DNA of 59,612 nt, taken from Bacteroidales bacterium (GTDB taxonomy: Bacteria; Bacteroidota; Bacteroidia; Bacteroidales; P3). A program made the position numbers and the translations under genes. Positions within the stretch are counted from its first letter, which is position 1, and each line of letters starts with the position of its first letter. Where the stretch lies: the NCBI GenBank assembly GCA_017501495.1, contig JAFVWV010000149.1:1-59612 (forward strand), given 5' to 3'. The notes below the pieces were generated by a model. That model searched no databases. It saw nothing but the letters and a program-made list of their open reading frames with translations, and was not told the origin of the DNA. This document shows, piece by piece, positions 20,845 to 38,540 of this stretch.

Positions 20845-20919
20845 GCTCCTGTAGTTCAATGGATAGAATAGAGGTTTCCTAAACCTTTGATCAGGGTTCG
20901 ATTCCCTGCGGGAGTACCA
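20845..20919 (+). tRNA. tRNA-Arg (anticodon CCT) with encoded CCA
   Basis: Cloverleaf by hand. Acceptor stem gctcctg/cgggagt, anticodon arm gaggt-ttCCTaa-acctt, T arm cagggttcgattccctg, then a discriminator A and CCA. Confidence 0.9.
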
Positions 20920-21190: not shown

Positions 21191-22549
21191 ATGAAAAGAC
21201 CAACTTTCAAGCCCCAAGCGCCCGACATAATCCTCACGGGTGACGGCCGCAGGATTGCGAAGACCTGCCTGCTGCTTTTCTTCTTGTTTGCCAGCACTTT
21301 CTGCCATGCTCAGACGGCCGCCAATGTCCTTTTCGTGGGCAACAGCTACACCGAGGTCAACGACCTGCCGGGGATGGTGACGCAGATTGCCCGGTCGATG
21401 GGCGACGAGCTCGCCTGCCAGAGCAACACCCCCGGCGGCTGCACCTTCAGTCAGCATTGCAGCAACCACTCGATGGAGCTCATCCGACAGGGCGGCTGGC
21501 ACTTCGTCGTGCTGCAGGAGCAGAGCCAGTATCCGTCGTTCCCGCAGCAGCAGGTCGAAAGCGAGGTGTTCCCCTACGCCCAGCGGCTGGTCGACTCCGT
21601 CTACCGCCATTCGCCTTGTGCCGAGCCGGTGTTCTACATGACGTGGGGGCGCAAGAACGGCGACCAGGGCAACGCCCCCTATTTCCCCGTGCTGGGCACC
21701 TACGAGGGCATGGACAGCATGCTCTGCGAGCGCTACACCTACATGGCCGAGGCCTACGACGCCTCGCTGTGCCCCGTGGGTCGCGTGTGGCGCTATCTGC
21801 GCACCCGGCACCCCACTATCGAGCTCTACCAATCCGACGGCAGCCACCCCTCGGTGGCGGGCACCTATGCGGCCGCGTGCGCCTTCTACACACTCTTCTT
21901 CCATCGTAACCCGACGGGCATACCCTTCGAGCCCTCGCAGATGGCCCCCGACGTTGCGTCGGCCATCCGACATGCCGTCGATTCGGTAGTGTATCAGCAA
22001 CTTGACAGCTGGCGCCGTCCGCAACCCGTGGCCGCCTTCGAGAGCCACATCGACGACACCGACCCCATGACGGTCGTCCTGGCCTCCACCTCCGCGCATG
22101 CCGACAGCCTTGTGTGGATAATCGACGATGGCGAAGCCCTCGGCACGACCGACACCACGCTGACGCACACCTTCGCCGACACCGGCAGCCACACCATCAC
22201 CCTAATCGCCTCGCGCCATTGCATGGCAGACACCACCACCGCGTCCGTCCACATCGTTGGCGACACCACGCCTCCCCTACCCATAGGCATCGCAAGTGCT
22301 GTCAGCATCAACGATTTTGCCGTTTCCCCAAACCCTACCGACGGCATGGTCATCCTTACGATACCGCCCAACTGTGAAATGCAGAGAGTCGTAGCGACCG
22401 ACATGGCTGGACGCCAGATAAAATCAGTCCCGGTCACGTCGACCGACATTAAGGTTGTTTTTTGGATAGATAACTGTGCTTCAGGCGTCTACTTACTGCA
22501 TGCCGTTGCCGCGACAAGAATCGCAACACGCAAGATAGTAGTAAGATAA
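21191..22549 (+). CDS. SGNH/GDSL-like hydrolase with a T9SS C-terminal sorting domain
   Basis: Block I VLFVGNSYT, block V SDGSHPS, and a C-terminus SPNPTDGMVILTI...GVYLLHAV...KIVVR that is typical of the Por/T9SS CTD. Confidence 0.7.
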   Translation: MKRPTFKPQAPDIILTGDGRRIAKTCLLLFFLFASTFCHAQTAANVLFVGNSYTEVNDLPGMVTQIARSMGDELACQSNTPGGCTFSQHCSNHSMELIRQGGWHFVVLQEQSQYPSFPQQQVESEVFPYAQRLVDSVYRHSPCAEPVFYMTWGRKNGDQGNAPYFPVLGTYEGMDSMLCERYTYMAEAYDASLCPVGRVWRYLRTRHPTIELYQSDGSHPSVAGTYAAACAFYTLFFHRNPTGIPFEPSQMAPDVASAIRHAVDSVVYQQLDSWRRPQPVAAFESHIDDTDPMTVVLASTSAHADSLVWIIDDGEALGTTDTTLTHTFADTGSHTITLIASRHCMADTTTASVHIVGDTTPPLPIGIASAVSINDFAVSPNPTDGMVILTIPPNCEMQRVVATDMAGRQIKSVPVTSTDIKVVFWIDNCASGVYLLHAVAATRIATRKIVVR

Positions 22550-22753
22550 TTTCCGTTTATTTGGCTCCATCGAAGATATTCCTGCGCGTAGGTGCTCAAA
22601 AACATTTACACATTAACACATTGGATGCGCGGCTACTCCTTTTACTCCCCTTTTGCTCCCCTTCGTACCCCCTTCTGGGTAACTCTGCTGTAACTATACA
22701 ATAACTCCGCTGTAACTCCGTTACACTCATAGTCACCATCAACAACACACACT

Positions 22754-23542
22754 ATGGCAAAGACCAACCCAACCCTCGGTCCTAATTCTGGCAAAATCGG
22801 CGACTTGGTATATTACACCCGCTTCGGCAAGGAGTTCGTCCGCCGTAAGGCAAAGACTTTTAACGACTGCAAGTCGGAAGCGCAGCTGCGCCAGCGAGCC
22901 ATCTTCAAGGCCACCCAGCAGACCGCAGCCCTCTATGGTTCCCTGTTGCAACGCGGCCTCACCAAGTACGCCCATAGCCAAGGCCACACCGAAGCCAACG
23001 AGTTCTCGCGCCTCAACAAAGAGCGCTTCTCCTATGCCGACGGCAAAGTCACCATCGACTACCCCGCCCTGCAACTTGCGGTTGGCCCCCTGCCCTCTGT
23101 CGCTTTCACAGCTTGCCACGCCGGAGGTCTCCACATCACGCTGACGTTCGACCCCAACCCCTCCGCCGACAAAGCCCGTCCCGACGATGTCGTCCACATC
23201 TATGCCGTCTCCCCGCAAGCCGAAGTCTGTATGCTAATGACTAGCGTAGAAAGGCAATCCGGACAGGCCGCCTTCGAACTACCCGACCTGAGCGACGAGG
23301 TAACAACAGCATGCAAAAAAGAGCCAACGAATAAACCATTGAATAAGACTAATGCATTCACACACTCACGCACTAACGCAATCAACTATCACCTCTACGC
23401 CATCGTCGAAGCAGCCAACACCGCCCCCATCTCCACCCTCTCCGCCGCCGAGAAGAAAGCCAACAAACTCCACCGCAACATCAACCGCCGCGTCTCCAAC
23501 TCTATATTCATCGGCTCCATCATTGCACCATGCCTCCCCTAA
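22754..23542 (+). CDS. Hypothetical protein, member of a three-paralog family (with 41546..42265 and 51055..51777)
   Basis: N-terminus GKIGDLVYYTRFGKEFVRR aligns with GRLKKSGVTFYTRNGQMVAR of 41546. It is a stand-alone gene behind a long CT-rich leader. Confidence 0.6.
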   Translation: MAKTNPTLGPNSGKIGDLVYYTRFGKEFVRRKAKTFNDCKSEAQLRQRAIFKATQQTAALYGSLLQRGLTKYAHSQGHTEANEFSRLNKERFSYADGKVTIDYPALQLAVGPLPSVAFTACHAGGLHITLTFDPNPSADKARPDDVVHIYAVSPQAEVCMLMTSVERQSGQAAFELPDLSDEVTTACKKEPTNKPLNKTNAFTHSRTNAINYHLYAIVEAANTAPISTLSAAEKKANKLHRNINRRVSNSIFIGSIIAPCLP

Positions 23543-23674
23543 AAAACGTTGATACGCTTCATCCAGCCCACCCCCAAACTGAAATTCAGCCCATTTGCTC
23601 AATGACAAAAACAATGAGAACCAAGAAATTACTTCGTATAAAACTGTTTATTTTGTCAATTTAATTCTTTTTTG

Positions 23675-23682
23675 TATCTTTG
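23675..23682 (+). promoter_or_regulatory. -7 promoter box (tatctttg) of the restriction/defence operon
   Basis: Matches TAnnTTTG 26 nt before ATG 23708. No comparable box was seen between the next five tightly packed genes. Confidence 0.55.
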
Positions 23683-23707
23683 CATTTGCATAGATAAATA
23701 TCTTACA

Positions 23708-24964
23708 ATGGGACAACAAACTGATTGCAAGCAAAAAAGAAAAGGTTTGTTCACGATGATAGACCTTTTCGCAGGAGCAGGAGGTCTCTCTGAGGGGTTT
23801 GTGCAGGCTGGATTTGACCCCATTGCACACATTGAAATGGATAGAGACGCATGCGACACGTTGAGGACTCGCTGCTGCTATCACTATCTCCGCAACAAAA
23901 ATAAACTCGATATCTATTATAGCTACTTAAAAGGAGAGATTTCCAGAGACAAGCTATACAAGTCAGTACCTTCATGGGTTATTGATGCAGTAATAAATGT
24001 AGAGATTTCCGACAATACAATCAAATCAACTTTTGCAAAAATCAAAGAGTTGTCTGCCAACAGAGGGATTGACCTGATCATAGGTGGTCCTCCGTGCCAA
24101 GCATATTCTCTTTTGGGTCGACACGACAAGAAAATGGAAGATGACCCTCGCACCCGTTTATATCTTCAATACGGTAAGTTCCTTGCGGAATTCAAACCGA
24201 AAGGATTCGTTTTTGAGAACGTGCCGGGGCTGTTGAGTGCAAAAAAAGGAGAGCATTTCAAGAATTTAAGAGAATACTTCGATAGCTTGGGTTACAATGT
24301 ACACTATAAAATGCTCGATGCATCCGACTATGGTGTTTTACAAGTCAGGAAAAGGCTCATTATTGTAGGCTGGCAAAAAGAGCATGACTATGGATACCCG
24401 GACATTCCAATAAATAAAGCTTCTGTTGCTGTCAACGACATCCTTAATGATTTGCCTCTTTTGAAAGCAGGCGATGTTTTGCAGGTGGCACCGTATAGAC
24501 AGTCTGCAAACGAGTATTTGCTTGTTAGTGGAATTCGAGATAAAGACGAAGTATTTGTTACACAAAACATCACTCGTCCTATCAACACCAATGATGCCGC
24601 CATCTATGCTTATGCCATAAAAGCTTGGAATGACAAACATATCCGCGTTAAATACACCGATCTTCCTGTGGAGTTGAAGACGCATAAAAACGAGGAATCG
24701 TTTTTGGATAGGTTTAAGGTAGTTGATGGGAATGGTCTTTCGCATACTTTAGTCGCTCACCTTGCCAAAGATGGCCACTACTTTATCCATCCAAATATCA
24801 ATTACTGTCGTTCCATATCCATACGGGAAGCCGCCAGGCTGCAATCATTCCCTGACAACTACTTCTTCGAGGGAAGCCGTTCTGCAAAATTTAAACAAAT
24901 AGGCAATGCTGTGCCACCTTTGATGGCTAAGACTATTGCCACTACTATATTTCAAATGTTATGA
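23708..24964 (+). CDS. DNA (cytosine-5)-methyltransferase (M1)
   Basis: Motif I DLFAGAGGLSEGF, IV GGPPCQAYS, VI FVFENVPGL, VIII LQVRKRL, X QIGNAVPP. Confidence 0.95.
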   Translation: MGQQTDCKQKRKGLFTMIDLFAGAGGLSEGFVQAGFDPIAHIEMDRDACDTLRTRCCYHYLRNKNKLDIYYSYLKGEISRDKLYKSVPSWVIDAVINVEISDNTIKSTFAKIKELSANRGIDLIIGGPPCQAYSLLGRHDKKMEDDPRTRLYLQYGKFLAEFKPKGFVFENVPGLLSAKKGEHFKNLREYFDSLGYNVHYKMLDASDYGVLQVRKRLIIVGWQKEHDYGYPDIPINKASVAVNDILNDLPLLKAGDVLQVAPYRQSANEYLLVSGIRDKDEVFVTQNITRPINTNDAAIYAYAIKAWNDKHIRVKYTDLPVELKTHKNEESFLDRFKVVDGNGLSHTLVAHLAKDGHYFIHPNINYCRSISIREAARLQSFPDNYFFEGSRSAKFKQIGNAVPPLMAKTIATTIFQML

Positions 24965-27134
24965 CCGATAACTTGCCCATAAATTCAATGGAAGTGCCTG
25001 TTGATGACCAAGAACGGGTCGCAAAATTCAAGCCCCGTGCAAGGTTATTATTACAATTAGGGGACCAGCTGATAAAAAACGAAAGCATTGCATTGCTTGA
25101 GTTGGCCAAAAATGCTTATGATGCAGATGCCTCAAAAGTAACAATAATCATGCATAATCCAGATTCGATTGAAAATGGTGACATTGAAATTGAGGACGAT
25201 GGATTTGGCATGACCGGCGACATTGTTGAAAATGTTTGGCTTGAACCGGGAAGTAACTTTAAGCAGGAGCAATATATTGAACGTAAAGTGACACCTAAAT
25301 TCAAGCGACTTCCAATTGGTGAAAAAGGAATTGGTAGATTTGGTGCCCACAAACTTGGCAATGTCATTGAAATGACAACAAAAAATGCCGATGATAAAGA
25401 AGTTTATGTGCGTATCGATTGGACAAGGTTTGCGGAACATAAGTACTTAGATGAAGTTCCAATAAAAATAATAGAAAGGGGTAATCCCCAATATTTTACG
25501 GATGGAAAGACCGGAACCAGAATTGTTATTCATGGCTTTCGTCATCCTTGGGAAAGAGGAACTGCTCGCGAAGTAAAGAGAGCAATGACCTCTATAACTT
25601 CTCCTTTTGAAACAGTTGGATCGTTTAAACCGAGCTTTGAGATATTAGATAAACCAAATGGTTTGATGGAATATTGTCATGGGATGGAGTTCGTGATTAT
25701 TCTCTCTTTCAGTTTGAGGCAATAATAGAGGGTAATTCAATCACACATTTTTCCTACAAATTCACACCATGGGCGACCATGACGAAATTGAAAGAAAGAG
25801 AAGTTGGCATCACGGATTCCATTGTAAACAACTATTTGAGAATAAAAGATGAGAAAGAAGAGGATGTAAATCTAAAACAATATAAAATCGGCAGGATAAA
25901 ATTTAAAGGCTACATTTTTGACCAAGATGCTTTTGTGTTAAAGATGGGGTTATCAGATAAATCCGGTTTTAAAGCATATTTAAAGTCTAATGGTGGGGTT
26001 CGTGTATTTCGAGACGGGCTAAGAATATATGACTACGGAGAACCCGAGAATGACTGGTTGGCATTGGATTATAGAAGATTTCAGCAGCCGACAAAAGCCA
26101 TTAGCAATAATCTCATTGTCGGTGCTGTTGAACTAAATAGAGATGAAAGCTCTGATTTGGAGGAAAAGACAAATCGAGAGGGCTTTGTGGCTAATGATGC
26201 CTATGCTGCATTTAAGAATGCTGTTTTGCATATCATTGAAATAGTTGAGATTCTTCGTCAAACAGACAAGAAAAAACTAAAAGAAATATACGGCCCGACA
26301 CCGAAATCCGAGCCCGTAATGAGCCTTATCGGAGAGGCTCAACGGTATGTCGAAGATAAGGTCGCAAACAGTGAAGTGAAAGCTGAAATCAAGAAATACC
26401 TCGTTAAAATCGAGCGTGACTATAAGATAGTGACCGACAATTTGCTAAAAGCCGCTGGTGCTGGCCTGAATATGTCCGTTGTTGTACATGAGATTGAAAA
26501 AATAATATATGAAGTCACAAAAGTATTAAAATCAGAGAAAGCATCGGAAAGAGTTCTTCATCTTGTGGAACATCTTTCTTCGCTGATTGATGGCTATGCA
26601 GATTTGATTCGTCGTTCAGACCAAACAACAGAAAATGTTGTTAACATTGTGAATCAAGCATTGTTTAATACAGAATATAGACTAGAAGCTCACAACATAG
26701 TTCTAATAAAAAAGTATAGTGGCAACAGTCAAATAAAAAATGTGCGATGCAAGGTGGCCAGAAATTTGATGATTAGCACTGTAATGAACCTGATCGACAA
26801 CTCTATCTATTGGCTTGATCAAAAATATTTCAAGAAAAAAGAAAAGAATGAATCGTTTAATAAGAAACTATACATTGACATTTTCCAAGAAAATGATTTT
26901 GTAAACATTTTGGTCGCTGATAATGGTACAGGCATATTATTACCCACGGAAGAAATCACAGAACCATTTGTTACAGGAAAGAAAAATGGAGCTGGCATGG
27001 GACTAGGCCTTCATATTGCAAGTGAAGTGATTGCTGCACAAGGTGGAAAAATCATTTTCCCCGACAATGGGGATTATGATGTCCCAGCAGAATTCCAAGA
27101 AGGTGCAATTGTCGTATTATCATTGAAAAAATAA
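24961..27134 (+). pseudogene. Fused MORC-like GHKL ATPase plus histidine-kinase transmitter (DHp + HATPase_c), split by a 1-nt frameshift near 25653-25662
   Basis: N-terminus: ELAKNAYDADASKVTI, IEDDGFGM, GEKGIGRFGAHKLG. C-terminus: H-box-like VVHEIEKII, N-box MNLIDNSIYW, G1 VADNGTGI, G2 GAGMGLGLHIA. ORFs 24961..25725 and 25674..27134 overlap in frames 1 nt apart, and the frame-2 sequence reads naturally from 25653. Confidence 0.75.
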
Positions 27135-27142
27135 TCTTATAT

Positions 27143-28504
27143 ATGAAAGATAGCATTATACCGATAACGGGACGTATTGCCATAATTGATGACAATATTA
27201 ACGAAGTAAAACCACTTATGAGGGAGTTTTCTCAAAACAACATCCCTTATGTTTATATCAAAGGTGACGACGAATCTTTTTTCCCAGAAGAACCAGACAA
27301 TGATATTCGGATACTTTTTTTAGATATTAATCTTTTAGGGCAATCCTCTACTAACGATAAAAACATTAAAAGCAATCTTATTAGTGTAATCCGAAGAGTT
27401 ATTTCCCCTAATAATTACCCGTATGTTTTAATATATTGGAGCCTTCAGGAACGTGAATATGACGCAATAATTCGAGAAGTGTTTGAAACCGTCTTGGAAG
27501 ATAGGCGTCCCATTTCTGTACATCGGTTTATAAAATCGGACTTCTTTTTAATACCGGGAGGAGAAGAACAACCTACTGACAAGAACATTGTTGAAGAATT
27601 AAAGAGAATAGTTCAGGGAATCCCTGCATATAACTATTTAATGCAGTGGGAAAATATTGCACATAATTCCACAGACAAGTTATTAAAAGAAATTTTTCCA
27701 AATGCAACCCCCGATGAATGGGAAAATGTAACGAACGTAATAATAAATTCATTAGGGCAAGCATACATTGGACAATATTTCCACGATGCTCCAATTGAAG
27801 AAAAAATCAAAGCAAGTTTAATGGCCTTAAATATGATATTTGTCGATTCTTTAGACAATCATTTAGGTCAATGTGAGATAAACAATCCCCAAGAGCTAAC
27901 TTCAAATGATTTTGACAAACAAAGAATAGGAGAATTAAAAGCCACTCTCAATCACAAATTGCTCATTTATACAACTCCCAACAATATTTGTGAACCAGGT
28001 GTGGTTATCCAATACACAAAGCCTACAAATGGCTATTTTGAGTCATTTCTACACAAAGTATTATCTATTTTCTCAATAAAACATGAAATCTTATGCAAAA
28101 CGCCAGACATTCTTGATGGTTTATTGAAGCAAGAATTAGGCAACAGAGTAAAACAGATAAAACAAGAAATCCAACAAACCTGGATAAGAATAGGTGTTGT
28201 AGTAACTCCAAGTTGCGATTTTGCACAAAAGAAAAAAATCTGTGACCGGGTTGTGCAAGGTGTCATGATAGAATCTCAATTTAGAAATTATTTAAATCAA
28301 GGTGATGCCTTTTATACCTCTCCTATAATAAGGCATGATGGGAGAAATTATATTGTCGTATTAAACTTTAATTATTTTATTACAACAAACCTTAACGGCG
28401 AGTCAGACTGCACTATTCTTTTTAAAATAAGACGTCCAATGTTGGCAGAAATTCAATCAAAATTAGCTCGACATATCAACCGACAGGGAATAATGAATTT
28501 ATAG
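27143..28504 (+). CDS. Receiver (REC)-like domain protein with an uncharacterised C-terminal domain of about 300 aa
   Basis: RIAIIDDN (acidic pair), ILFLDINLL (candidate phospho-acceptor Asp61), VLIYWS and a later Lys fit a CheY-like pattern. The rest of the protein has no motif I recognise. Confidence 0.6.
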   Translation: MKDSIIPITGRIAIIDDNINEVKPLMREFSQNNIPYVYIKGDDESFFPEEPDNDIRILFLDINLLGQSSTNDKNIKSNLISVIRRVISPNNYPYVLIYWSLQEREYDAIIREVFETVLEDRRPISVHRFIKSDFFLIPGGEEQPTDKNIVEELKRIVQGIPAYNYLMQWENIAHNSTDKLLKEIFPNATPDEWENVTNVIINSLGQAYIGQYFHDAPIEEKIKASLMALNMIFVDSLDNHLGQCEINNPQELTSNDFDKQRIGELKATLNHKLLIYTTPNNICEPGVVIQYTKPTNGYFESFLHKVLSIFSIKHEILCKTPDILDGLLKQELGNRVKQIKQEIQQTWIRIGVVVTPSCDFAQKKKICDRVVQGVMIESQFRNYLNQGDAFYTSPIIRHDGRNYIVVLNFNYFITTNLNGESDCTILFKIRRPMLAEIQSKLARHINRQGIMNL

Positions 28505-28513
28505 ACAGGTATT

Positions 28514-29776
28514 ATGCCAAAGAACACATATAATATTAATTCTTTTTTTGCAGGAGTAGGCGGATTTGACGTAGCGTTTGAAAGACAAGGATTTTCGACG
28601 ACATTACTGTGTGAGATAAACCCGTTCTGTAATCAAATCCTAGACAGGCATTGGCCTCATGTTAAAAAAGTTGGTGATATTAATATTATTAAATCAGACG
28701 ATATTCCACAATCTAATGTGTGGTGCGGAGGATTTCCTTGTCAGGACATTTCTGTTGCTCGGGGTGCTTCAGCAAGATTAGGATTGAAAGGAACCAGGTC
28801 TGGTTTGTTTTATCGTTTTGCAGAACTAATTGAAGCAGAAAAGCCCGAAGTTGTAATTATTGAGAATGTTGCCGGTCTGTTTACATCTAATAAAGGAAGA
28901 GATTTCGGAGTTATTCTACAGACTCTATCCTCTTTGGGTTATGCTGTTGCTTGGAGATTGTTGAACAGCCGCTATTTTGGTGTTCCGCAGTCTCGTACAC
29001 GTGTTTATTTGTGTTGCTGGAGAAATAACCCCCAAAAAGCATTAAGCGTCATGTTCGATAAAAAAGGTGCTGTAAAACCACAAAACGAAAGAATTGATTT
29101 TATTACAGAAGATAACGCCCGTAATACATATCCTAAAGTACCTAAAGTAGCCTATTGCCTTGCGGCTTCATCTGGAAGACATACTGGAACGGATTGGAGT
29201 AGGACATATGTTGTTTGCAGAAATGGTGTCCGACGTTTGTCACCTGTTGAATCAGAAAGACTTCAGGGTTTTCCAGATAATTGGACTTTGCCGTCGGAGG
29301 AATTGATAAATGATGAAAACATAAACACGCTCAGATATACTGCAATAGGGAATGCAGTATCTGTTCCTGTTGTTGAATGGGTGGCAAAAAAGGTGAAGAA
29401 ACAGCTTGGAAGTAAGCTCAAGGAAAATGATTTAGCGGATGATATTATGTCATATCATGATTTAAAAAAATCAAAGTGGTCTGATGTGGAATTAAATAAT
29501 ATTGACTTTACCGATACAACAAAAACATATAAATGGGAAAGAGGTGGTTTGGTCTGGCATAACCGGTTCATCGAATGCAATATTCCGCCCACTCCTTCTG
29601 AAATTGTTAATTCGTCTTTGTCAAACTTGATTGAAAAAAAACAAAACAATCCAGTTTATTTTCTTTCGCCAAACGCAGCAGAAGGAATTTTACGACGTGT
29701 TGATAGCCAAAATAGAAGTCTTTTTGCACCATTGCGAATCGCTTTAGAAAAATTAAGTTCCCAAAATAACAAATAA
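28514..29776 (+). CDS. DNA (cytosine-5)-methyltransferase (M2) with a C-terminal extension
   Basis: Motif I SFFAGVGGFDVAF, IV GGFPCQDIS, VI IIENVAGL, VIII PQSRTRVY, X IGNAVSVPV. Confidence 0.95.
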   Translation: MPKNTYNINSFFAGVGGFDVAFERQGFSTTLLCEINPFCNQILDRHWPHVKKVGDINIIKSDDIPQSNVWCGGFPCQDISVARGASARLGLKGTRSGLFYRFAELIEAEKPEVVIIENVAGLFTSNKGRDFGVILQTLSSLGYAVAWRLLNSRYFGVPQSRTRVYLCCWRNNPQKALSVMFDKKGAVKPQNERIDFITEDNARNTYPKVPKVAYCLAASSGRHTGTDWSRTYVVCRNGVRRLSPVESERLQGFPDNWTLPSEELINDENINTLRYTAIGNAVSVPVVEWVAKKVKKQLGSKLKENDLADDIMSYHDLKKSKWSDVELNNIDFTDTTKTYKWERGGLVWHNRFIECNIPPTPSEIVNSSLSNLIEKKQNNPVYFLSPNAAEGILRRVDSQNRSLFAPLRIALEKLSSQNNK

Positions 29777-29777
29777 T

Positions 29778-31520
29778 ATGATGAACTTCAATTTTATTAC
29801 AGTCCGATTAGGCAAAGATAGCATTCCTGACATTGAAAGGATTTGCTCGTCGGAGGTTGGCGTTCTGAATGATTCTTTCGCCATAAATGTGAAATGTACT
29901 CAGATTCCTGAAAATTATAATTCGGGAGATTATGCTTTTATTTGGTTGGGCTCAGACAACAATAAAGGAATGCCAACAAAATGGAAACAGGGATTTAAAG
30001 CAATAGGACGGGTTGGTACTATTATACGTGGTGCCAGTTATAATGAGACATCTGAAACCGCTATTAATATTGTCTACGTTTTTAATGACGCAATCAATCG
30101 TCTTGATTTTTTAAGGTCTGCACCTATTGAGTATTATTGGTGTTCAAACATGCCATTGATTGGAATTGACGATCATGCTAATCAAACGATAAGAAGTGTT
30201 AGTGGTTCATCTTTATGTGATATTCCCGCACTCTTTTGCTCAATAAATAGAATTTGTGACACCTTTAAAAGTGATATCTTAAAAATAGAACCTGGTTTTC
30301 TGCACCTTTTCTCTTTTTCAATACCAAAACCCAAAAACTTCCCTGATGCAAAATCAATAGTTGAAGTTAAACAACAGAATAATAAAAAGACAACTACAGG
30401 GAATACTTATCTACCCTACCTCGCCGCCTTGCGGACGAAGCCGTTTATGTTGCTGGCGGGTATTTCGGGAACGGGAAAGAGTAGGATTGTGAGGGAGATG
30501 GCAAAGGCTTGCTGGAAGGAGGGCGACCCGGAATATGGGAAGCCCCTCCCAAGGAACTTCTGCATGGTGCAGGTAAAGCCCAACTGGCACGACAGCAGCG
30601 AACTGATAGGCTATGTGTCGCGTCTGAACGGGGAGAAGTTCGTGGTGGGTCCGTTCCTACGTTTCCTGGCGGCGGCACTCAAAGAGCCCGATGTGCCTTA
30701 TTTCCTCTGCCTTGACGAGATGAACCTCGCCCCTGTGGAGCAATACTTCGCCGAATACCTCTCCGTCATTGAGAGCCGCAAACTGAACCCCGACGGTACC
30801 ATCACTACCGACCCCATCATCGAATATGAGAACACCGATGCCTACGGCAGCCTGATAGACCAACTGTTTGACACACCTGAGGAACGCAAAGCCTACAAGA
30901 CCGATGATGGCGGCAAGCGCCTCTCCATCCCACAGAACCTCTTCGTGGTGGGTACGGTGAATATGGACGAGACAACCTTCTCGTTCAGCCGTAAGGTGCT
31001 GGACCGCGCCATGACTATCGAGATGAATGAGGTGGACCTACACGGAGGTCTTGAGAAAGGCACCGGCAACGACATCGGCTATATAGGCAACAGTATCATC
31101 GGCGATGCCGCCGAGGGCTGCGATGTGTACGAGGACAACCGCGAGCTGTGCGACCAAGTGCTGGCCTACCTGGAGCAGGTGAACGCCATCCTAGAGGGCA
31201 CCCCCTTCAAGATAGCTTACCGCACCCGCAATGAATTCCTGATGTACGCCGTCAATCGCAAGGCTCTGGCCCCCGACAGCCAGCTGTGGCAGACCCTCGA
31301 CGAGATGACCTCTATGAAAATCCTCTCCCGCATCGAAGGCGACGAAGAGCGCACCAAGAAAGTCCTCGACGGCCTCAAAGCCCTGGTAGATGAGCAGATT
31401 GTGTCCGCCATCCCGCCCGCCGAAGAAGGCAATCCTGTGCAGAAAAGCATCTCCGCCGCCAAGATAGAAGAGATGCAGAAGAAACTCCAAGCCACAGGCT
31501 TCACCAGCTACTGGGCATAG
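29778..31520 (+). CDS. McrB/LlaJI.R1-like AAA+ GTPase restriction subunit. The AT-rich N-terminal domain presumably binds DNA, and the AAA+ domain is GC-rich.
   Basis: Walker A LLAGISGTGKSR, NWHDSSELIGY, Walker B FLCLDEMNLAP, VVGTVNMDETT and SRKVLDRAMTIE, all typical of the McrB AAA_5 family. Confidence 0.8.
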   Translation: MMNFNFITVRLGKDSIPDIERICSSEVGVLNDSFAINVKCTQIPENYNSGDYAFIWLGSDNNKGMPTKWKQGFKAIGRVGTIIRGASYNETSETAINIVYVFNDAINRLDFLRSAPIEYYWCSNMPLIGIDDHANQTIRSVSGSSLCDIPALFCSINRICDTFKSDILKIEPGFLHLFSFSIPKPKNFPDAKSIVEVKQQNNKKTTTGNTYLPYLAALRTKPFMLLAGISGTGKSRIVREMAKACWKEGDPEYGKPLPRNFCMVQVKPNWHDSSELIGYVSRLNGEKFVVGPFLRFLAAALKEPDVPYFLCLDEMNLAPVEQYFAEYLSVIESRKLNPDGTITTDPIIEYENTDAYGSLIDQLFDTPEERKAYKTDDGGKRLSIPQNLFVVGTVNMDETTFSFSRKVLDRAMTIEMNEVDLHGGLEKGTGNDIGYIGNSIIGDAAEGCDVYEDNRELCDQVLAYLEQVNAILEGTPFKIAYRTRNEFLMYAVNRKALAPDSQLWQTLDEMTSMKILSRIEGDEERTKKVLDGLKALVDEQIVSAIPPAEEGNPVQKSISAAKIEEMQKKLQATGFTSYWA

Positions 31521-31546
31521 AAAGTATATAATATGGATTTGTCATT

Positions 31547-32707
31547 ATGAATACTTATAATATACCGACGTTACCTCTACCTTACGACCTTGAGACCATT
31601 GCCGTCTTAAAGCAGGTAAACCGAGCAAACAAAAAGCTGGCTGAGTTGAAGGGCGTCGCACAAACTATTCCCAACGAGCAGATTCTTATCAGCAGCCTAA
31701 CCCTACAAGAATCCCGGGACAGTTCCTACGTGGAAAACATTGTCACTACGCATGACGAATTGTATCGTGCGGAATTGGAACCGACGTTGATTGAATTCAA
31801 TGCCGCAACCAAAGAGGTTTTGCACTACAGAGAAGCCATCAATGAAGGTTTCCGTCTTGTAAGAGACAAGAACATTCTCACGCTGAATCATATAAAACGC
31901 ATCCAAGAAATACTTGAAGAAAATAAAGCCGGATTCAGAAGTACACCTGGAACAAAGCTCAAGAGAGAATCCGATGATGCCATCGTATATGTTCCGCCTC
32001 AGGATCCGATGGAGGTGGAAAGATGCATGGTAAACCTGGAACAATTCATTAATGACATTGAGTTGAGCCCTGTCGACCCATTAATCAAAATGGCCATTAT
32101 CCACCATCAATTCGAAAGTATACATCCTTTCTACAACGGCAATGGGAGAACAGGTCGTATTGTAAATATATTATATCTCGTCATAAGCGGCTTGCTTGAC
32201 TTGCCAATCCTTTATCTAAGTCGATACATTACGCACAACAAAGGTGAGTACTATCGACTATTGCAAGCCATCAGAGACAAGAACATAGACAATGCGAAGG
32301 AATGGGAAGAATGGGTTTTGTTCATTCTCAAGGGTGTTGAATCAACTGCTGAAGACACGATAACCCTTGTAAAAAGTATTGGATCAATGATGGATGATTA
32401 CAAGAGGATTTTGAGACCGGCTTTCGGGAAAAAATATAGTCATGACCTTATAAACGGTTTGTTCTATCATCCCTATACCAAGATAGAACATGTGGAAAGA
32501 AATCTACAACTCTCACGACAGACAGCCTCAAAGTACCTTAACAAAATTGTATCATTGGGATTGCTTCACAAAGAAAAGATTGGAAAAGAGAACTACTACA
32601 TAAACACCAGATTGATGGATTTATTTGTCAGTTTCGGTGAATATGACGCTATCGTCCCCAATGAGAGTATAGAATCTGTTCATGTTAACGAAATCAAAAA
32701 AAATTAA
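31547..32707 (+). CDS. Fic-family protein (Fic_N, Fic core, C-terminal wHTH)
   Basis: Core motif HPFYNGNGRTGR at 32123-32158, inhibitory-helix motif SSYVEN (SxxxEN) at 31721-31738, and an AT-rich composition. Confidence 0.85.
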   Translation: MNTYNIPTLPLPYDLETIAVLKQVNRANKKLAELKGVAQTIPNEQILISSLTLQESRDSSYVENIVTTHDELYRAELEPTLIEFNAATKEVLHYREAINEGFRLVRDKNILTLNHIKRIQEILEENKAGFRSTPGTKLKRESDDAIVYVPPQDPMEVERCMVNLEQFINDIELSPVDPLIKMAIIHHQFESIHPFYNGNGRTGRIVNILYLVISGLLDLPILYLSRYITHNKGEYYRLLQAIRDKNIDNAKEWEEWVLFILKGVESTAEDTITLVKSIGSMMDDYKRILRPAFGKKYSHDLINGLFYHPYTKIEHVERNLQLSRQTASKYLNKIVSLGLLHKEKIGKENYYINTRLMDLFVSFGEYDAIVPNESIESVHVNEIKKN

Positions 32708-32747
32708 CATGAGATGCATGGTCATGTTAAGAAATTTCATTTTTTTT
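32704..32747 (+). terminator. Possible terminator after fic
   Basis: Stem ttaacatga / tcatgttaa, then gaaatttca and a T8 run. The T-run is not adjacent to the stem. Confidence 0.4.
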
Positions 32748-32805
32748 AACACGTTATTATTGTCAAGTTGATTTTTTGAAAAAAACTTAACACGAGAATT
32801 ATTAC

Positions 32806-34938
32806 ATGGACCTCCTGCGCATCACACACGACGATTTCTTCCTGACGGTGGAAAGTACCCAGTTCCAACGAATGTGGGACAAGGGGAGTCGCATCCTCGG
32901 CAGGGAGAAGTTGACCTCCTCATATCATTGGGGTGAGGGGGTACAGAAAGTGGTGCTGGTGAAAGGGGATGTTGAATGTGAGATTGTGCAGGACAATACC
33001 GAGACACCCGCTGTATTCTTCGAACAGACGGACTACAGCGTGTGGGTGGATTTTACCAATTCCAAGGTGACAAAAGCATGGTTCGACAGCCCAAGGAAGG
33101 ATGTCAACGACCGCTTCTCTTGGAAAGGGAGCAAGCAGATGTTGGCAGGATTCCTGAACTACGGTAACGAAATTGGCCGTGCCGACATGCCGATATGCTA
33201 CACCGTGAACGGAGTGCAGAAAAAATTTGTTTTCTCCTACGATGTCATCTCAGCCAAGTTGGACTATCATCAAGACTGGAAGATTATCCTGCAGGACATC
33301 GAGGAGGAGTACCGCATGCTGTCGCTGGACTACCTGCGGCGCACCTATCACGGCATCAAGGAAGAGCATGGCGAGAGTTACGACATCATTTGGTGGAATA
33401 TCTTCGGCGGGCTGCAAGAGCAGTTCCTGCGTACCGTCCATAACATCATCGACCGGCCACGTCATCGGCTGAAATCCATCGAGACCTACAAACGGGCCGA
33501 CCAGATACGCCGCCTCACACCGCAACTGGAGCAACAACTGGCCGAGCACCGCATGGAAGAGACCCGCCTGTACCGCGTAGAGGAGCAGCAGAACACCTAT
33601 AATACCCCAGAAAACCGTTTCCTGAAGCATGCCCTGCTGACGGTTCAAAAACGCTATTCTGCCCTCGCAGAGAGAGTTCTCCTGCAGGACACCCGTATGG
33701 CCGACACCCACCGGGACAGGATAGCCCACACCCGTGACGAGCTGAACCGCCTGTTGCGACACCCCTTCTTCCGTACCGTGGGACCATTTGACGGCATCAA
33801 GCAGGAGTCGCTCATCCTGCAGAAGGATGTAAATTACTCGAAAGTGTTCCGCATCTACACCATCCTGCAAAAGTCCTTCAGCCTCAACGACGGTCTCTAC
33901 CGCATGGAGACCAAGGACATAGCCACCCTGTACGAGATATGGTGTTTCATCCAGGTGGAGAAGGTGGTCAAAGAGCTGACTGGCGCAGAAGCCGAGCAGC
34001 ATAGCCGCACGGAGATGAGTGGTCTTTTCACCTACAGTCTTGGCAAAGGCGAACACTCGAAGATTATCTTCAAGAAAGACGATGTGACGCTGGCTGAGTT
34101 GGTTTACAATCCACGGCATAGTGACAAGGACGACGTGAAAGGTATTGGTGAGTTGGAGTCGAAGACCGTGCCGCAGAAACCCGACATCGTGTTGCAGCTC
34201 ACCAAGGACGATCTGCAGGAAGGCATGAAACTCACCTACCTCTTCGATGCCAAATACCGGTTGGAGAAAGATGGTGCGAACGATGTGCCCCCCGACGATG
34301 CCATCAACCAGATGCACCGCTACCGTGACGCTATCTACTATAACAGCAAACACCGGGACGAGAAGATAAAGAAAGAGGTCATCGGCGGCTACATCCTCTT
34401 CCCCGGCCAGATGGACGAACTCTCGCGCTTCCGTCGCAGCATCGACGAGGTGAATATCGGAGCTTTCCCTATGCGTCCCGGCGACAACCAGCACGAACTA
34501 TTGTCCGACTTCATCAAAGACCTACTGAACAAACACGCCGTGGAAATCGTCGAGCAAGTTATCCCGCAGAAAGGTACCTACCTGGAGATAAAGAACAGAG
34601 TCTTGGTTGGCGTAGTCAAGTCCGACAACCCTCAATATGAGAACTTCAAGGATGGCACCGCCTCCTTCTACTACTCTGGCGACACTTTTCCAACTACCAT
34701 CCCATTGGATGGCATAGATTATTTCGCACCATACATCCCCGACAAAGGAATACGTGACCTATATCTTGTGTCAGGCATCCACACCTCAACCAAGGCCAAG
34801 GGGGCTGATGACGACAAACTTCGTATCACCTTTGAGCTCAAATTTGCCCGTACTTTATTTACAGACTACAAAATAGTCCCCCTCCCGATACAACACACTT
34901 TCAACGACACCTCATTGGACAAACTAACTTTGGAGTGA
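32806..34938 (+). CDS. McrC/LlaJI.R2-like restriction subunit (DUF2357-like N-terminus plus PD-(D/E)xK nuclease)
   Basis: 710 aa. KPDIVLQL ... YLFDAKYR gives the D...(D/E)xK arrangement seen in McrC-type nucleases. It follows the McrB-like gene. Confidence 0.7.
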   Translation: MDLLRITHDDFFLTVESTQFQRMWDKGSRILGREKLTSSYHWGEGVQKVVLVKGDVECEIVQDNTETPAVFFEQTDYSVWVDFTNSKVTKAWFDSPRKDVNDRFSWKGSKQMLAGFLNYGNEIGRADMPICYTVNGVQKKFVFSYDVISAKLDYHQDWKIILQDIEEEYRMLSLDYLRRTYHGIKEEHGESYDIIWWNIFGGLQEQFLRTVHNIIDRPRHRLKSIETYKRADQIRRLTPQLEQQLAEHRMEETRLYRVEEQQNTYNTPENRFLKHALLTVQKRYSALAERVLLQDTRMADTHRDRIAHTRDELNRLLRHPFFRTVGPFDGIKQESLILQKDVNYSKVFRIYTILQKSFSLNDGLYRMETKDIATLYEIWCFIQVEKVVKELTGAEAEQHSRTEMSGLFTYSLGKGEHSKIIFKKDDVTLAELVYNPRHSDKDDVKGIGELESKTVPQKPDIVLQLTKDDLQEGMKLTYLFDAKYRLEKDGANDVPPDDAINQMHRYRDAIYYNSKHRDEKIKKEVIGGYILFPGQMDELSRFRRSIDEVNIGAFPMRPGDNQHELLSDFIKDLLNKHAVEIVEQVIPQKGTYLEIKNRVLVGVVKSDNPQYENFKDGTASFYYSGDTFPTTIPLDGIDYFAPYIPDKGIRDLYLVSGIHTSTKAKGADDDKLRITFELKFARTLFTDYKIVPLPIQHTFNDTSLDKLTLE

Positions 34939-34995
34939 CCAACTCACCATGGCACCCGAACAGCGGAACCGTCGCATGTAATTTCCGTAAGCCTT

Positions 34996-35367
34996 TTAAT
35001 CCTCTATTATCCACAGATATTCTTTCAGCGGGACTTTGCCGGAGGGGGTGAGGCGGATGCCTTCGGAGGTTAAGAGGGAGGCTTGGGCGAGGTAATGCGA
35101 GGCGAGGCGGCCGGAGGCGTTGACGACGCGATGGCAGGGGAGGTCGGCATCGGGGGCCCCACGCATGATGCGACCCACCAGACGGGAATGATTGGGCCAG
35201 CCACACAAGGCGGCGATACGGCCATAGGTGAGCACCCGTCCACGCGGTATCTGTCGGACGATGTCGTAGACCTCGGCACGAAGGGTGGCCTCGCTCGGCT
35301 GTGCTGCAACGTTTATCATGAACGAATAACGCAATGCGCTGCTAATTATTGTCTCTCCTTTTATCAT
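34996..35367 (-). CDS. MGMT-family (O6-alkylguanine transferase DNA-binding domain) protein
   Basis: 123 aa with RIPRGRVLTYGRIA and the active-site-like motif PCHRVVNASG. Confidence 0.8.
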   Translation of the reverse strand: MIKGETIISSALRYSFMINVAAQPSEATLRAEVYDIVRQIPRGRVLTYGRIAALCGWPNHSRLVGRIMRGAPDADLPCHRVVNASGRLASHYLAQASLLTSEGIRLTPSGKVPLKEYLWIIED

Positions 35368-35370
35368 ATA

Positions 35371-35680
35371 CTCCTGCTCGCGCTCCGCGCATCGCGAAAT
35401 CTCGTAGATCTTGTAGATTATTCCGCCTGCGGCGAGGACGCAAGGCGAAACAATATATAAGATTTATGGATCTCTGCCCATCAGGGTTAGGCGATTAATT
35501 CTCCTGCTCGCGCTATGCGCTTGCAAGATCTTGTAGATCTTGTAGATTATTTCGCCTGCGGCGGGGCGCAAGGCGAAACGATATATAAGATTTATAGATC
35601 TCTTCCCGCAGGGCTTGGCGATTAATTCTTCTGCTCACGCTCCGCGCATCGCGAAATCCCGCAGATCTTGTAGATTAAGA
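35371..35680. repeat. Tandem repeat, about 2.4 copies of a 127-130 bp unit
   Basis: Units start at 35371, 35501 and 35628 (ctcctgctcgcgct...). Each contains agatcttgtagatta sub-repeats and an imperfect hairpin cgcctgcgg..cgcaaggcg. Confidence 0.9.
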
Positions 35681-35766: not shown

Positions 35767-36597
35767 ATGAAGCAAAATAGAATCAAAATCTGGCTGCTCG
35801 TCGCGCTACTGGTGCTGGCGGGAACGACGGCTCTGGCGGCATGCAGCGACAAGGAGGACACCCTTGCGGGGAGGCCCACCATTGAGCGCATCGAGCGGCG
35901 GGGCACGCTGCTGGTCGGCACCACGGGCGACTACCGACCGTTGTCGTTCCGCGAGCCGGAGACGGGCGAGTACTGGGGCTTCGCCATCGAGTTGGCCGAG
36001 TCCATGGCCAAGCGGATGGGCGTGGCGGTGGAGTTCGTACCCACCTCGTGGCCCACGCTGACCGCCGACGTGCAGGCCGAGCCACAGCTGTTCGACATGG
36101 CCATGGGCGGCATCACCATCACCGAAACGCGCTGCGCCACAATGCTGATGAGCGAAGGCTACCTGGCCAACGGCAAGACCATCCTCTGCCGCACGGAGGA
36201 CACCGTCCGATTCCGCTCGCTCGAGGACATCGACCGGCCGGAGGTGCGCGTGATGGTCAACCCCGGCGGCCTCAACGAGCAGTTCGCCCGCCAATACCTC
36301 ACCCACGCCACCCTTATCGTTCACCCCAACAACGAGGAGATACCCTCGCTCATCGCTGATGGCGAAGCCGACGTGATGATCACCGAGATAACGGAAGCCC
36401 CCTACTATGTGCAGAGCGACCCGCGCCTGGCGGCGCCCCTGCTCGACGCGCCCTTCACCCACGGCGAGATCGGCGTGCTGATGCGACAGGGGCAGGACGA
36501 CCTGCTGGCCCTCGTCAACAGCATCATCCGCCAGATGAAGTCCGACGGCACCCTCCGTCAACTGACCGAGAAGTACGGATTGGTGTACGCCTACTGA
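35767..36597 (+). CDS. Periplasmic solute-binding protein, family 3 (amino-acid-binding / cyclohexadienyl dehydratase-like)
   Basis: Lipoprotein signal LAACSDK, LLVGTTGDYRPLSF and MAMGGITIT are typical of SBP_bac_3. -7 box tacttttg at about 35713. Confidence 0.7.
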   Translation: MKQNRIKIWLLVALLVLAGTTALAACSDKEDTLAGRPTIERIERRGTLLVGTTGDYRPLSFREPETGEYWGFAIELAESMAKRMGVAVEFVPTSWPTLTADVQAEPQLFDMAMGGITITETRCATMLMSEGYLANGKTILCRTEDTVRFRSLEDIDRPEVRVMVNPGGLNEQFARQYLTHATLIVHPNNEEIPSLIADGEADVMITEITEAPYYVQSDPRLAAPLLDAPFTHGEIGVLMRQGQDDLLALVNSIIRQMKSDGTLRQLTEKYGLVYAY

Positions 36598-36636
36598 AAA
36601 ACAGAAACCAAGACCCACAGAATACCGCAACACCCT

Positions 36637-37182
36637 ATGACCGACACCATGACACCCGAGCAGCGGCACCGCTGCATGTCGCACATACGCAGCAAGGCCA
36701 CGAGGCCGGAACTGCTGGTGCGGCGGTGGCTGTGGAGCCACGGGTATCGGTATCGGCTGAACGTCAAGAGTGTCCCCGGCAAGCCGGACATCGTGCTGCG
36801 GCCCTACCGCACGGCGATATTCGTCAACGGGTGCTTCTGGCACGGACATGGTGTGCGTCCTCCGGCCGTACAAATTGAAAATTCAAAATTGAAAATTGAA
36901 AACTCCCCCTGCTGTAAGATTCCACAGACTAACCGCAACTTCTGGCTGGAGAAGATACGTCGCAACCAGGAGCGCGACCAGCGCAACTACACCCTGCTGC
37001 AGGACAACGGCTGGCAGGTCATCGTCGTCTGGGAGTGCCAACTGAAGCCCGACAAGATAGAGCGCACCATGCGCGAGGTGGAACTGGCGCTGAACAACAA
37101 CCTGCTGGCAATATATAAACACCATCCCCTCCCCTACTCCACCGACGAGGACGAACCCATGCCCATGGCGGCGGAGGATTGA
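36637..37182 (+). CDS. vsr: Very-short-patch repair endonuclease (Vsr) carrying an in-frame insertion of about 18 aa
   Basis: RSKATRPEL, PGKPDIVL, FVNGCFWHGH, NFWLEKIRRNQERD and VIVVWECQL. The segment VRPPAVQIENSKLKIENSP lies between GH and CC. Confidence 0.85.
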   Translation: MTDTMTPEQRHRCMSHIRSKATRPELLVRRWLWSHGYRYRLNVKSVPGKPDIVLRPYRTAIFVNGCFWHGHGVRPPAVQIENSKLKIENSPCCKIPQTNRNFWLEKIRRNQERDQRNYTLLQDNGWQVIVVWECQLKPDKIERTMREVELALNNNLLAIYKHHPLPYSTDEDEPMPMAAED

Positions 37183-37292
37183 ATTCCCTCGGCGCCGAAG
37201 CAGCAGGAATCACGAAGAACCTGTAGACTCCGACTGGAAGTCACCTCACGGCAGCATCACAATAAAAGGGGTGATGCCTCGTTATGTAATAC

Positions 37293-38117
37293 ATGGGTAA
37301 AATCAAAATATACTATTTCAGCCCTACGGAAGGAACCCTGCACGTGGCACAGCATCTGGGCGAACGGCTGGGGCAGCTGATAGATGCCCCGACAGAGTAC
37401 CACTCCTATACGCTGCCTCAGGAGCGCGAGGAACTTCCGACCTTCGAGACAGACGACATCGTCCTCTGGGCAACACCTGTCTATGCCGGACGCATACCCA
37501 ACAAAACGCTCGACTATGTGCGCCAGGCGCTTCACACACAAACACACAACAAATCCCTTGCCCTCGTCACATTCGGCAACCGCGCCTACGACAATGCGCT
37601 GGCGGAGCTGGTGGGTCTGATGCAAGACGGCGGCATGCAGACCGTGGGAGCTGTCGCCATGGTTACGCGACACGCCTTCAGCGACACCCTTGGTGCCGGA
37701 CGGCCAAACCATGAAGACCTCGCCGCCCTCGACCGCTTTGCCGTGCAGGTGGCGAAGAAGATACGCTCCGGCAATCCTACCGTAATACATATTCCCGGCG
37801 AAGCCCATCCTGATAAATACTACACCCCCCTGAAGACCAACAACGCCCCTGCCGGTTTCCTCAAAGCCAAGCCCTCGTGCGACAGCACCCGCTGCACCCG
37901 TTGCGGCCGCTGCCTTGAGGTATGCCCCATGGGGAGCATCACGAACACCGACGGAATGCCCGCCTTCGACGGCATCTGCATCAAATGTCAGGCCTGCCGC
38001 CGCAGCTGCCCCACAGGAGCCATCGCCTTCACCGACGAGGAATACCTCTCGCATGTAGCCATGATCGAGCGCACCTTTGCGATGCCCAAACAACCGGAGT
38101 TCTATGTGGCAGAATAA
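37293..38117 (+). CDS. Flavodoxin-like domain plus 2x[4Fe-4S] ferredoxin domain protein (EFR1-type)
   Basis: N-terminal flavodoxin-like fold (KIYYFSPTEGT), plus C-terminal CTRCGRCLEVCP and CIKCQACRRSCP. Confidence 0.7.
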   Translation: MGKIKIYYFSPTEGTLHVAQHLGERLGQLIDAPTEYHSYTLPQEREELPTFETDDIVLWATPVYAGRIPNKTLDYVRQALHTQTHNKSLALVTFGNRAYDNALAELVGLMQDGGMQTVGAVAMVTRHAFSDTLGAGRPNHEDLAALDRFAVQVAKKIRSGNPTVIHIPGEAHPDKYYTPLKTNNAPAGFLKAKPSCDSTRCTRCGRCLEVCPMGSITNTDGMPAFDGICIKCQACRRSCPTGAIAFTDEEYLSHVAMIERTFAMPKQPEFYVAE

Positions 38118-38140
38118 GAGACTTGCTCAACAATAGGAAC

Positions 38141-38533: not shown

Positions 38534-38540
38534 AAGACCG

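Follow-up and report, generated by a model that had tools for sequence, protein, structure and literature searches.

Separable and probably independent defence modules in tandem at a hypervariable Bacteroidales locus: a methyltransferase, MORC-type kinase and receiver-like cassette beside an McrBC-type unit

The LlaJI system of Lactococcus lactis pNP40 consists of two 5-methylcytosine (m5C) methyltransferases (MTases), a McrB-like protein (R1) and a McrC-like protein (R2), and it restricts unmethylated, not modified, DNA. A different kind of defence is represented by Detocs, which acts against phages and resembles a two-component system; it comprises a kinase, a receiver that serves as buffer and a receiver joined to an effector. 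Genes resembling parts of both lie side by side in a contig of a Bacteroidales bacterium (JAFVWV010000149.1, assembly GCA_017501495.1; its 59,612 nucleotides are called here the window), where seven genes of the same direction span 23708-34938 on the + strand. The original prediction took them for one LlaJI-type restriction operon, interrupted between its two MTase genes by a phosphorelay. Here it is proposed that they are probably tandem independent modules and not one system: a triad of MTase M1, a GHKL ATPase/histidine kinase (HK) and a receiver-like (REC-like) protein (module 1), a McrBC-type unit of MTase M2, R1 and R2 (module 2), and a Fic gene between R1 and R2 (module 3).

Both the triad and the McrBC type of module were already flagged by comparative genomics. 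Soluble proteins with HATPase_c_3, HEF_HK and HATPase_c domains, encoded beside Response_reg_2 proteins and linked to MTases, were described by Bellieny-Rabelo, Pretorius & Moleleki (2021, PMC8011034); the gene linkage of HEF_HK and Response_reg_2 is 91.6%, and C5-methyltransferases, Vsr and type II restriction-modification (R-M) genes are enriched nearby (PMC8011034). For the second type, DUF2357 combined with PD-(D/E)xK was equated with McrC (Bell et al., 2024, PMC11090510), and a McrB branch with an NxD signature was distinguished, no McrB of which has been characterised; its MTase-associated part, the ‘yellow’ branch, is given one sentence and deferred to a later paper (PMC11090510). In view of the pairs in PMC8011034 and of the two-component genes accompanying NxD McrBC in PMC11090510, calling the architecture of the locus unknown was an overstatement. 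The narrower statement, that no system of such architecture has been characterised experimentally, agrees with the literature, in which no experimental study of either module type was found. The window thus holds an uncharacterised variant of types already described.

The three modules lie head to tail, in one direction, in a foreign-looking island of ~11 kb. Their genes, with the two parts of R1 given separately, are the following.

23708..24964, + strand: M1, m5C DNA methyltransferase, first gene of the triad; Pfam DNA_methylase 7e-66, with FAGAGG, PPCQ and ENV motifs
24961..27134, + strand: paraMORC-type GHKL ATPase fused to a histidine-kinase-like dimerization and histidine phosphotransfer (DHp) domain and a catalytic domain; HATPase_c_3 1e-14, HATPase_c 6e-08
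27143..28504, + strand: response-regulator-like protein in three parts, receiver-like at the N-terminus (residues ~10-135), helical in the middle (~149-346), and small and beta-rich at the C-terminus (~348-446)
28514..29776, + strand: M2, m5C DNA methyltransferase, likely cognate of R1; Pfam DNA_methylase 3e-61; synteny with the conspecific contig L034 resumes at its start codon
29778..31520, + strand: R1, McrB-like AAA+ GTPase of the NxD branch; AAA_5; PADLOC PDC-M26A 1e-42
29778-30404, + strand: variable N-terminal specificity domain of R1, low in GC
30405-31520, + strand: conserved GTPase module of R1, with host-like GC
31547..32707, + strand: SoFic-like Fic protein; its slot, between R1 and R2, is an optional one; Pfam Fic_N, Fic and SoFic-like_C; PADLOC SoFic 6e-114
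32806..34938, + strand: R2, McrC homolog that joins a PD-(D/E)xK nuclease to DUF2357, the domain for McrB activation; DUF2357 1e-42, PDDEXK_7 4e-35

The separability of the triad is illustrated by the conspecific contig L034, which is 96-97% identical to window 21772-23515, 28514-35420 and 35767-40969. It retains M2, R1, Fic and R2 together with the flanks, and exactly window 23516-28513 is exchanged for a different 7-kb segment coding for AAA_15 and DUF3226 proteins, a GHKL protein of 908 amino acids (aa), its 436-aa partner and another m5C MTase; the right-hand break is the first base of the M2 start codon. What L036, a further locus, has in common with the window is confined to the flanks, R2 and the GTPase module of R1. 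The wider behaviour of the triad was followed in 33 loci found via the REC-like protein. In each of the 24 loci that reach far enough upstream, the gene immediately before GHKL encodes an M1-type MTase (22 of these with phmmer E from 1e-126 to 1e-210), and the GHKL and REC-like genes are adjacent in 32/33, the remaining locus being a 1.6-kb contig with the REC-like gene alone. The order of m5C MTase, single GHKL open reading frame (ORF) of ~717 aa and REC-like gene is invariant across loci from Bacteroidota, Ignavibacteria and Desulfitobacteriaceae. What lies 3' of it differs: McrB/McrC-like genes in close Bacteroidales relatives, Z1/DUF4420/AIPR genes in four loci and, in other phyla, the mutually unrelated pyridoxal phosphate (PLP) decarboxylase, transposase, GmrSD_N, XhoI and AspBHI/Mrr genes. 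Vsr is present in 10/33 loci. When only species representatives with at least 5 kb of downstream sequence are counted, an R1 or R2 homolog is found in one of 11, and ten are without McrBC. Judged by these neighbourhoods, the stretch 23708-28504 would be an autonomous three-gene cassette.

The converse survey started from the conserved R1 GTPase module and yielded 80 metagenomic loci. They usually consist of one or two m5C genes, R1 and R2, and in some a Vsr gene comes next; in 62/90 loci at least one of the two genes immediately upstream of R1 codes for an m5C MTase. Among the 34 loci selected by R1 that extend at least 6.5 kb upstream, 22 have no large GHKL gene. Many R1 homologs, 480-700 aa long, are similar to R1 only over its C-terminal ~64% (~90% identity) and must therefore have other N-termini; in the related loci these N-termini fall into at least 33 clusters, carried on a GTPase module that is 60-90% identical. 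The variable part follows the neighbouring MTase. For pairs of loci with similar R1 N-termini the adjacent MTases are similar in 44/44 cases, compared with 79/1609 for dissimilar pairs, and in N-terminal clusters 0, 3 and 9 the same combination of R1 reader and MTase is seen in loci that have a GHKL cassette as well as in loci that lack one. This co-variation of reader domain and adjacent MTase suggests that M2 and R1 share specificity. Base composition within R1 points the same way as the exchanges seen in L034 and L036: the GC of the N-terminal 209 codons is 0.349 and that of the GTPase module 0.566, so R1 is compositionally a chimera, in which the reader domain was imported and the motor is resident. 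As far as gene content can tell, M2-R1-R2 constitutes an autonomous MTase-associated McrBC-type system of the NxD branch. The kinase and receiver do lie among m5C MTases and McrB-like and McrC-like genes, as first described, but the picture of a LlaJI core interrupted between M1 and M2 is not supported, given that M1 travels with the kinase and receiver and that L034 exchanges all three at once. Nor does M1 appear to belong to the modification arm of R1/R2, since only the directly adjacent MTase tracks the R1 N-terminal domain.

The competing explanation is one integrated LlaJI-type system, in which the kinase and receiver gate the McrB/McrC-like enzyme, or a second effector, by phosphotransfer. 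It draws on the layout of the genes, which are co-directional, tightly spaced and preceded by a sole promoter-like box:

23653..23682, + strand: promoter-like region before M1, with the TATCTTTG (TAnnTTTG) box at 23675-23682, 26 nt 5' of the ATG; a consensus match only

The first five genes are separated by -4, +8, +9 and +1 nt, within the range of -4 to +9 nt given originally. A search for TAnnTTTG in the + strand from 23600 to 35000 gives three positions, 23675, 25335 (within a gene) and 34925, so that the box at 23675 is, as was noted before, the only one found upstream of the array; its count in the whole window, 28 against 21 expected, is not above chance. No strong + strand terminator-like site is predicted inside the array. 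The tight packing, the missing internal terminator and the single upstream box make co-transcription of the array genes probable. The integrated system is also favoured by loci L004 to L006, in which R1 directly follows the REC-like gene and no second MTase lies between them.

Several points therefore have to be set against the independence of the modules. The probable co-transcription is one of them, as one-strand packing at -4 to +9 nt continues across the module boundary. GHKL/HK cassettes of at least three families stand directly upstream of R1-R2 in 12/34 loci, which is far beyond chance for a rare gene pair; the loci are drawn from related gut Bacteroidales and are not phylogenetically independent. 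Two-component genes are frequent in operons of the MTase-associated NxD McrBC branch (PMC11090510), so some functional coupling may exist. Finally, no nuclease or other catalytic motif or fold was identified in the REC-like protein, which makes the effector step of a self-contained module 1 a guess. On the other side stand the ten of 11 triad loci without McrBC, the 22 of 34 McrBC loci without GHKL, the exchange of the triad alone in L034 and R1 specificity domains that follow the adjacent MTase, not the cassette. Moreover, some R1 units beside GHKL cassettes lack an m5C MTase of their own directly upstream, and R1 of L004 and of L036 faintly matches MrcB_N, the domain with which E. coli McrB reads methylcytosine; such units resemble plain Type IV units. 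With these data an integrated system seems unlikely, and tandem independent modules are retained as the probable arrangement.

If the triad is considered as a separate cassette, its proteins deserve separate attention. M1 matches the PADLOC DrmMII model over its full length (1e-163). DrmMII of DISARM methylates CCWGG, and such a Dcm-like specificity of M1 would fit the frequent Vsr neighbours. DISARM itself was rejected as a classification, as no protein other than M1 matches a DISARM model in PADLOC.

The kinase gene is split in the window into the ORFs 24961-25725 (HATPase_c_3) and 25674-27134 (HATPase_c). DNA alignment shows a 1-nt deletion in the A-run at 25656-25658, where the window has CCAAATGG and two relatives have CCAAAATGG; the homologous protein reads DKPGWFDG across the point at which the window shifts frame. 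An intact ORF of 724 aa is present in L028 (REC-like protein 99% identical, DNA 97%) and in L029 to L031 (89%). Accordingly, of the seven + strand ORFs first listed six are intact (23708-24964, 27143-28504, 28514-29776, 29778-31520, 31547-32707 and 32806-34938), and 24961-27134, presented as an intact GHKL/HK fusion, is not one ORF here. In this contig the kinase is either inactivated or mis-assembled, and unless there is an assembly error, the deletion leaves module 1 probably inactive. The window is apparently one complete metagenomic or MAG contig, a point relevant to whether the frameshift arose in assembly. Programmed frameshifting or phase variation was ruled out, because the run is merely A3/A4 and the relatives are in frame.

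In 23 non-identical full-length homologs of the kinase the residues of both ATP sites are largely kept. The MORC/MutL-type motifs ELAKNAYDADA (E47, N51, D54), DDGFGM and GEKGIGRFG are conserved, mostly invariantly. In the kinase half the H-box H510-E511 and the G2 box GMGLGL are invariant, as are D-N-G and the final G of DNGTG; PFVT is mostly invariant and the N box NLIDN conserved in part only. This pattern fits an enzyme that still uses both ATP sites and the phospho-accepting histidine. The histidine-kinase assignment made originally is supported, with the H-box and the N, G1, F and G2 boxes all present beside the HATPase_c match.

Its partner, the REC-like protein, has no match in Pfam, NCBIfam, PADLOC or PDB sequences. 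The 32 aligned relatives have none in Pfam either, including a comparison of their profile with Response_reg, and PDB sequence searches with the single sequence and with the profile gave nothing significant. The family profile matches neither E. coli CheY, compared by hhalign, nor a PF19192-positive (Response_reg_2) protein. The evidence for a receiver comes from the predicted structure and the motifs. An AlphaFold2 model (pLDDT, or predicted local distance difference test, 86; predicted template modelling score, pTM, 0.78) has a (beta-alpha)5 N-terminal domain, and it places D16, D61, S100 and K131, which are invariant in the 32-sequence alignment, at the C-terminal ends of beta1, beta3, beta4 and beta5. 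The top 50 Foldseek matches in the PDB are mostly receiver domains (FixJ, StyR, DrrB, PhoP, Spo0F), with probability ~1 and E ~1e-3. On structure and motifs a receiver identity is reasonable, although sequence profiles, the CheY comparison included, find nothing. The receiver assignment of the original prediction is accordingly supported by the predicted fold and the four residues, but by no profile library.

The small beta-rich C-terminal domain of the REC-like protein is likely its output. Foldseek with residues 140-453 gave weak MazF/PemK matches (PDB E 0.04-0.5, template modelling (TM) score ~0.5 over ~105 residues), and the output domain searched against BFVD gave PemK-like and endoribonuclease entries; hhalign of this domain with a small MazF/Kid alignment returned a probability of 0.1%. 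The likeness is taken as a weak hint from the modelled fold, and homology is not claimed. The family is large, with 1676 clusters at 50% identity at E <= 1e-3, at least 1264 of them at E <= 1e-10, in several phyla. Among 150 listed members nearly all full-length proteins have ~420-480 aa, with no sign of domain shuffling.

It could also be assumed that the kinase and receiver regulate transcription of the neighbouring restriction genes, as an ordinary two-component pair would, an assumption which their HK-like and REC-like domains and their position at the head of the operon seem to invite. Against it, Pfam and fold searches recognise no DNA-binding or other output domain on the REC-like protein, the kinase is a soluble protein with a MORC-type ATPase fused to it, and the pair moves with its own MTase into unrelated contexts; such a regulator is most improbable.

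Compared with the pairs of PMC8011034, the triad shows the same soluble combination of HATPase_c_3, a DHp domain with H-E and HATPase_c, the same kind of receiver-like partner without a known output domain and the same direct linkage to a C5-MTase, often with Vsr. The GHKL protein of the window aligns collinearly, in three segments of 28-30% identity, with a PF19191-positive protein encoded at the same hot spot in L035. PF19191 (HEF_HK) and PF19192 (Response_reg_2) match the alternative cassettes of L035 and L048, but neither model matches a protein of the window, any of the 32 aligned relatives or any of 10 distant ones. A bridge to Response_reg_2 through the distant family members was rejected, as 0/10 of them match PF19192. 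Since the GHKL proteins align collinearly while their partners show no similarity, we read the triad as a sister or analogous branch of the HEF_HK/Response_reg_2 kind, a large one, for which Pfam has no model. With Detocs the triad would share the concept of a His-Asp relay ending in a receiver fused to a non-transcriptional effector. It differs in its MORC-type ATPase sensor and its obligatory MTase, neither of which is present in Detocs. Detocs and MADS were ruled out as classifications by the PADLOC matches; in PADLOC, in a release that may not hold Detocs models, neither the kinase half nor the REC-like protein has a family.

The N-terminal GHKL part of the kinase protein matches the BbrUII/HgiDII restriction enzyme family (6e-22) and the PADLOC REase_II model (1e-12). 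This raises the question of whether module 1 might be an ATP-dependent paraMORC restriction enzyme of BbrUII/HgiDII type that cuts unmethylated DNA directly, without phosphotransfer, its kinase and receiver features being relics. The triad always carries its own MTase, and in the sister cassettes L036, L041 and L061 an HNH_2 nuclease stands in place of the receiver-like partner. Yet H510-E511, G1 and G2 are conserved across phyla (the N box partly), D16, D61, S100 and K131 are invariant, and the REC-like protein has no nuclease motif or fold. The conservation of the kinase boxes, of H510-E511 and of the receiver residues argues for retained phosphotransfer chemistry, and direct cutting by a paraMORC enzyme is considered very unlikely.

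For the triad as an independent cassette a sequence of events can be suggested. M1 would mark self DNA, and the MORC-like ATPase module would engage DNA and read its status. Next, the kinase module would autophosphorylate H510 and the phosphate would move to D61 of the partner, whose output domain might then act as the effector, by nucleic-acid cleavage or growth arrest. The HNH_2 nuclease that replaces this partner in sister cassettes suggests that the effector occupies the partner position. In its fullest form this proposal would make the triad an immune system complete in itself and mechanistically of a new class, in which a MORC-type clamp reads methylation and His-Asp phosphotransfer activates a toxin-like output, possibly of MazF/PemK-like fold, in series with the neighbouring McrBC-type enzyme or tuning it; put so specifically, the proposal is speculative and rather doubtful. 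These biochemical steps, as well as those suggested below for module 2, we infer, what was observed being gene content, domains, conservation, separability and the swap.

The McrBC-type unit can be compared with better known enzymes. The NxD signature GTVNMDE is present in R1 of the window and in 85/90 homologs, together with Walker A in 84/90, and the PDI...DAKY motif of R2 in 61/61 homologs. With the NxD branch of PMC11090510 the unit has in common GTVNMDE and Walker A in R1, DUF2357 and PD-(D/E)xK in R2, an adjacent MTase and two-component genes in the array; in the loci surveyed here, the two-component cassette is optional and exchangeable, not a fixed part. Similar to E. coli McrBC, an AAA+ GTPase with an exchangeable N-terminal reader is combined with a McrC made of DUF2357 and PD-(D/E)xK, but the motif in the window is NxD and not NxxD, and the N-terminal domain is not MrcB_N. 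The pairing with an MTase implies that the unit would target unmethylated DNA, unlike E. coli McrBC. Its gene make-up, m5C MTase(s) followed by a McrB-like NTPase and a PD-(D/E)xK partner, is that of LlaJI, and restriction of unmethylated DNA would be expected by analogy; the difference is that only M2 behaves as the partner of R1, while M1 belongs to the other cassette. No LlaJI-named family was found at E <= 0.01 in Pfam or NCBIfam, and no Lactococcus record is among the matches listed for a tblastn search of plasmids. On the model of E. coli McrBC and LlaJI, methylation by M2 would protect the host site, the exchangeable N-terminal domain of R1 would read the same site when unmethylated, the DUF2357 domain of R2 would stimulate GTP hydrolysis by R1 hexamers, and R2 would cut with its PD...DAK nuclease.

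Within R2 there is a 414-aa antisense ORF (33250-34494, - strand), lying wholly inside the gene and probably a by-product of its codon composition. Some loci have an extra gene between the MTases and R1, namely an NgoFVII-type restriction enzyme (L064, 8331-9341), a NOV_C-domain protein (L060, 8331-9371) or an unannotated protein of 246 aa (L099, 9150-9887), from which it follows that the hot spot also gathers classical type II enzymes.

The Fic gene would represent a third module, SoFic as a stand-alone defence gene between R1 and R2. The gene after R1 in related loci is R2 in 55 cases, Fic in 14, AlbA_2/HATPase_c_4 in eight and DUF1016-like in three, and owing to this varying content of the slot SoFic is regarded as an optional passenger. 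Like SoFic, the window protein has all three Fic domains and a full-length PADLOC match; unlike it, the gene is nested between the mcrB-like and mcrC-like genes, scores below the NCBIfam equivalog cutoff (352.8 bits, cutoff 550) and has Asn in the Fic motif. The motif at residues 193-201 is HPFYNGNGR, with Asn for Asp/Glu, and 10/14 homologs of related loci have HPFYDGNGR. Taken with the frameshifted kinase gene, the altered motif may be a sign that the island is decaying in this strain.

The island as a whole (~23543-34995) is a mosaic inside a hypervariable chromosomal hot spot. Its GC is 42%, compared with 57% in the remainder of the window; M1, GHKL, REC, M2, the N-terminal part of R1 and Fic have 0.33-0.42, and the C-terminal part of R1 (0.57) and R2 (0.52) stand beside a host value of 0.57. 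The left edge is a DUF6266 gene, and on the right lie Ogt, SBP and Vsr genes:

22754..23542, + strand: DUF6266 gene, left boundary of the hot spot; L034 and L036 have the same flank, and in L035, too, the array is preceded by a DUF6266 gene
34996..35367, - strand: Ogt-like protein with a DNA_binding_1 domain, right boundary of the hot spot; the same flank is found in L034 and L036
36637..37182, + strand: Vsr very-short-patch repair endonuclease in the conserved right flank; Pfam Vsr 4e-31; same position in L034 and L036

Vsr at 36637-37182 is a companion to resident m5C methylation. Its gene has host-like GC and lies 1.7 kb past R2, behind the Ogt-like and SBP_bac_3 genes. The flank of these three genes is retained in L034 and L036, so Vsr is apparently a permanent resident beside a slot that repeatedly receives m5C MTases.

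The host is one of the Bacteroidota: the related loci carry the label Bacteroidales, and one neighbouring gene in the window has a type IX secretion system (T9SS) sorting domain. The original prediction stated that the window has no integrase or transposase; none was found in the flanks or in two other low-GC spots (RimP/NusA and ferritin), the only regions checked. No meaningful direct or inverted repeats flank the triad. A zeta-toxin/AAA_33-like kinase gene (20029-20610) and tRNA-Arg(CCT) (20845-20919) lie 2.7-3.5 kb upstream of the island. The tRNA gene is not the insertion site, because two host genes (DUF4886/T9SS and DUF6266) intervene, and it was rejected as a mobile-element marker, being 2.7 kb away and without contact with the island. 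A pair of AAA_15/AAA_21 ATPase and DUF3226 genes often precedes GHKL cassettes at the hot spot (L034, 1939-3653; L035, 492-2197; also L038, L042, L052, L054, L057, L093 and L105); the window lacks this pair, which looks like one more set of defence genes.

Altogether, what the original prediction observed is largely real, its domains are partly right and its wiring is wrong. The hot spot can be seen as a natural experiment, in which one McrBC chassis is combined with at least 33 reader types and three alternative inserts, in the presence or absence of GHKL cassettes. It shows that McrB specificity domains and MTases are exchanged together, and its variety could guide cloning and specificity mapping; as the kinase of the window is frameshifted and its Fic motif altered, an intact relative of the L028 type is better material. 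The REC-like proteins form a large family for which Pfam, NCBIfam and PADLOC hold no model. If the triad does signal by phosphotransfer, it would join epigenetic self-marking to two-component signalling.

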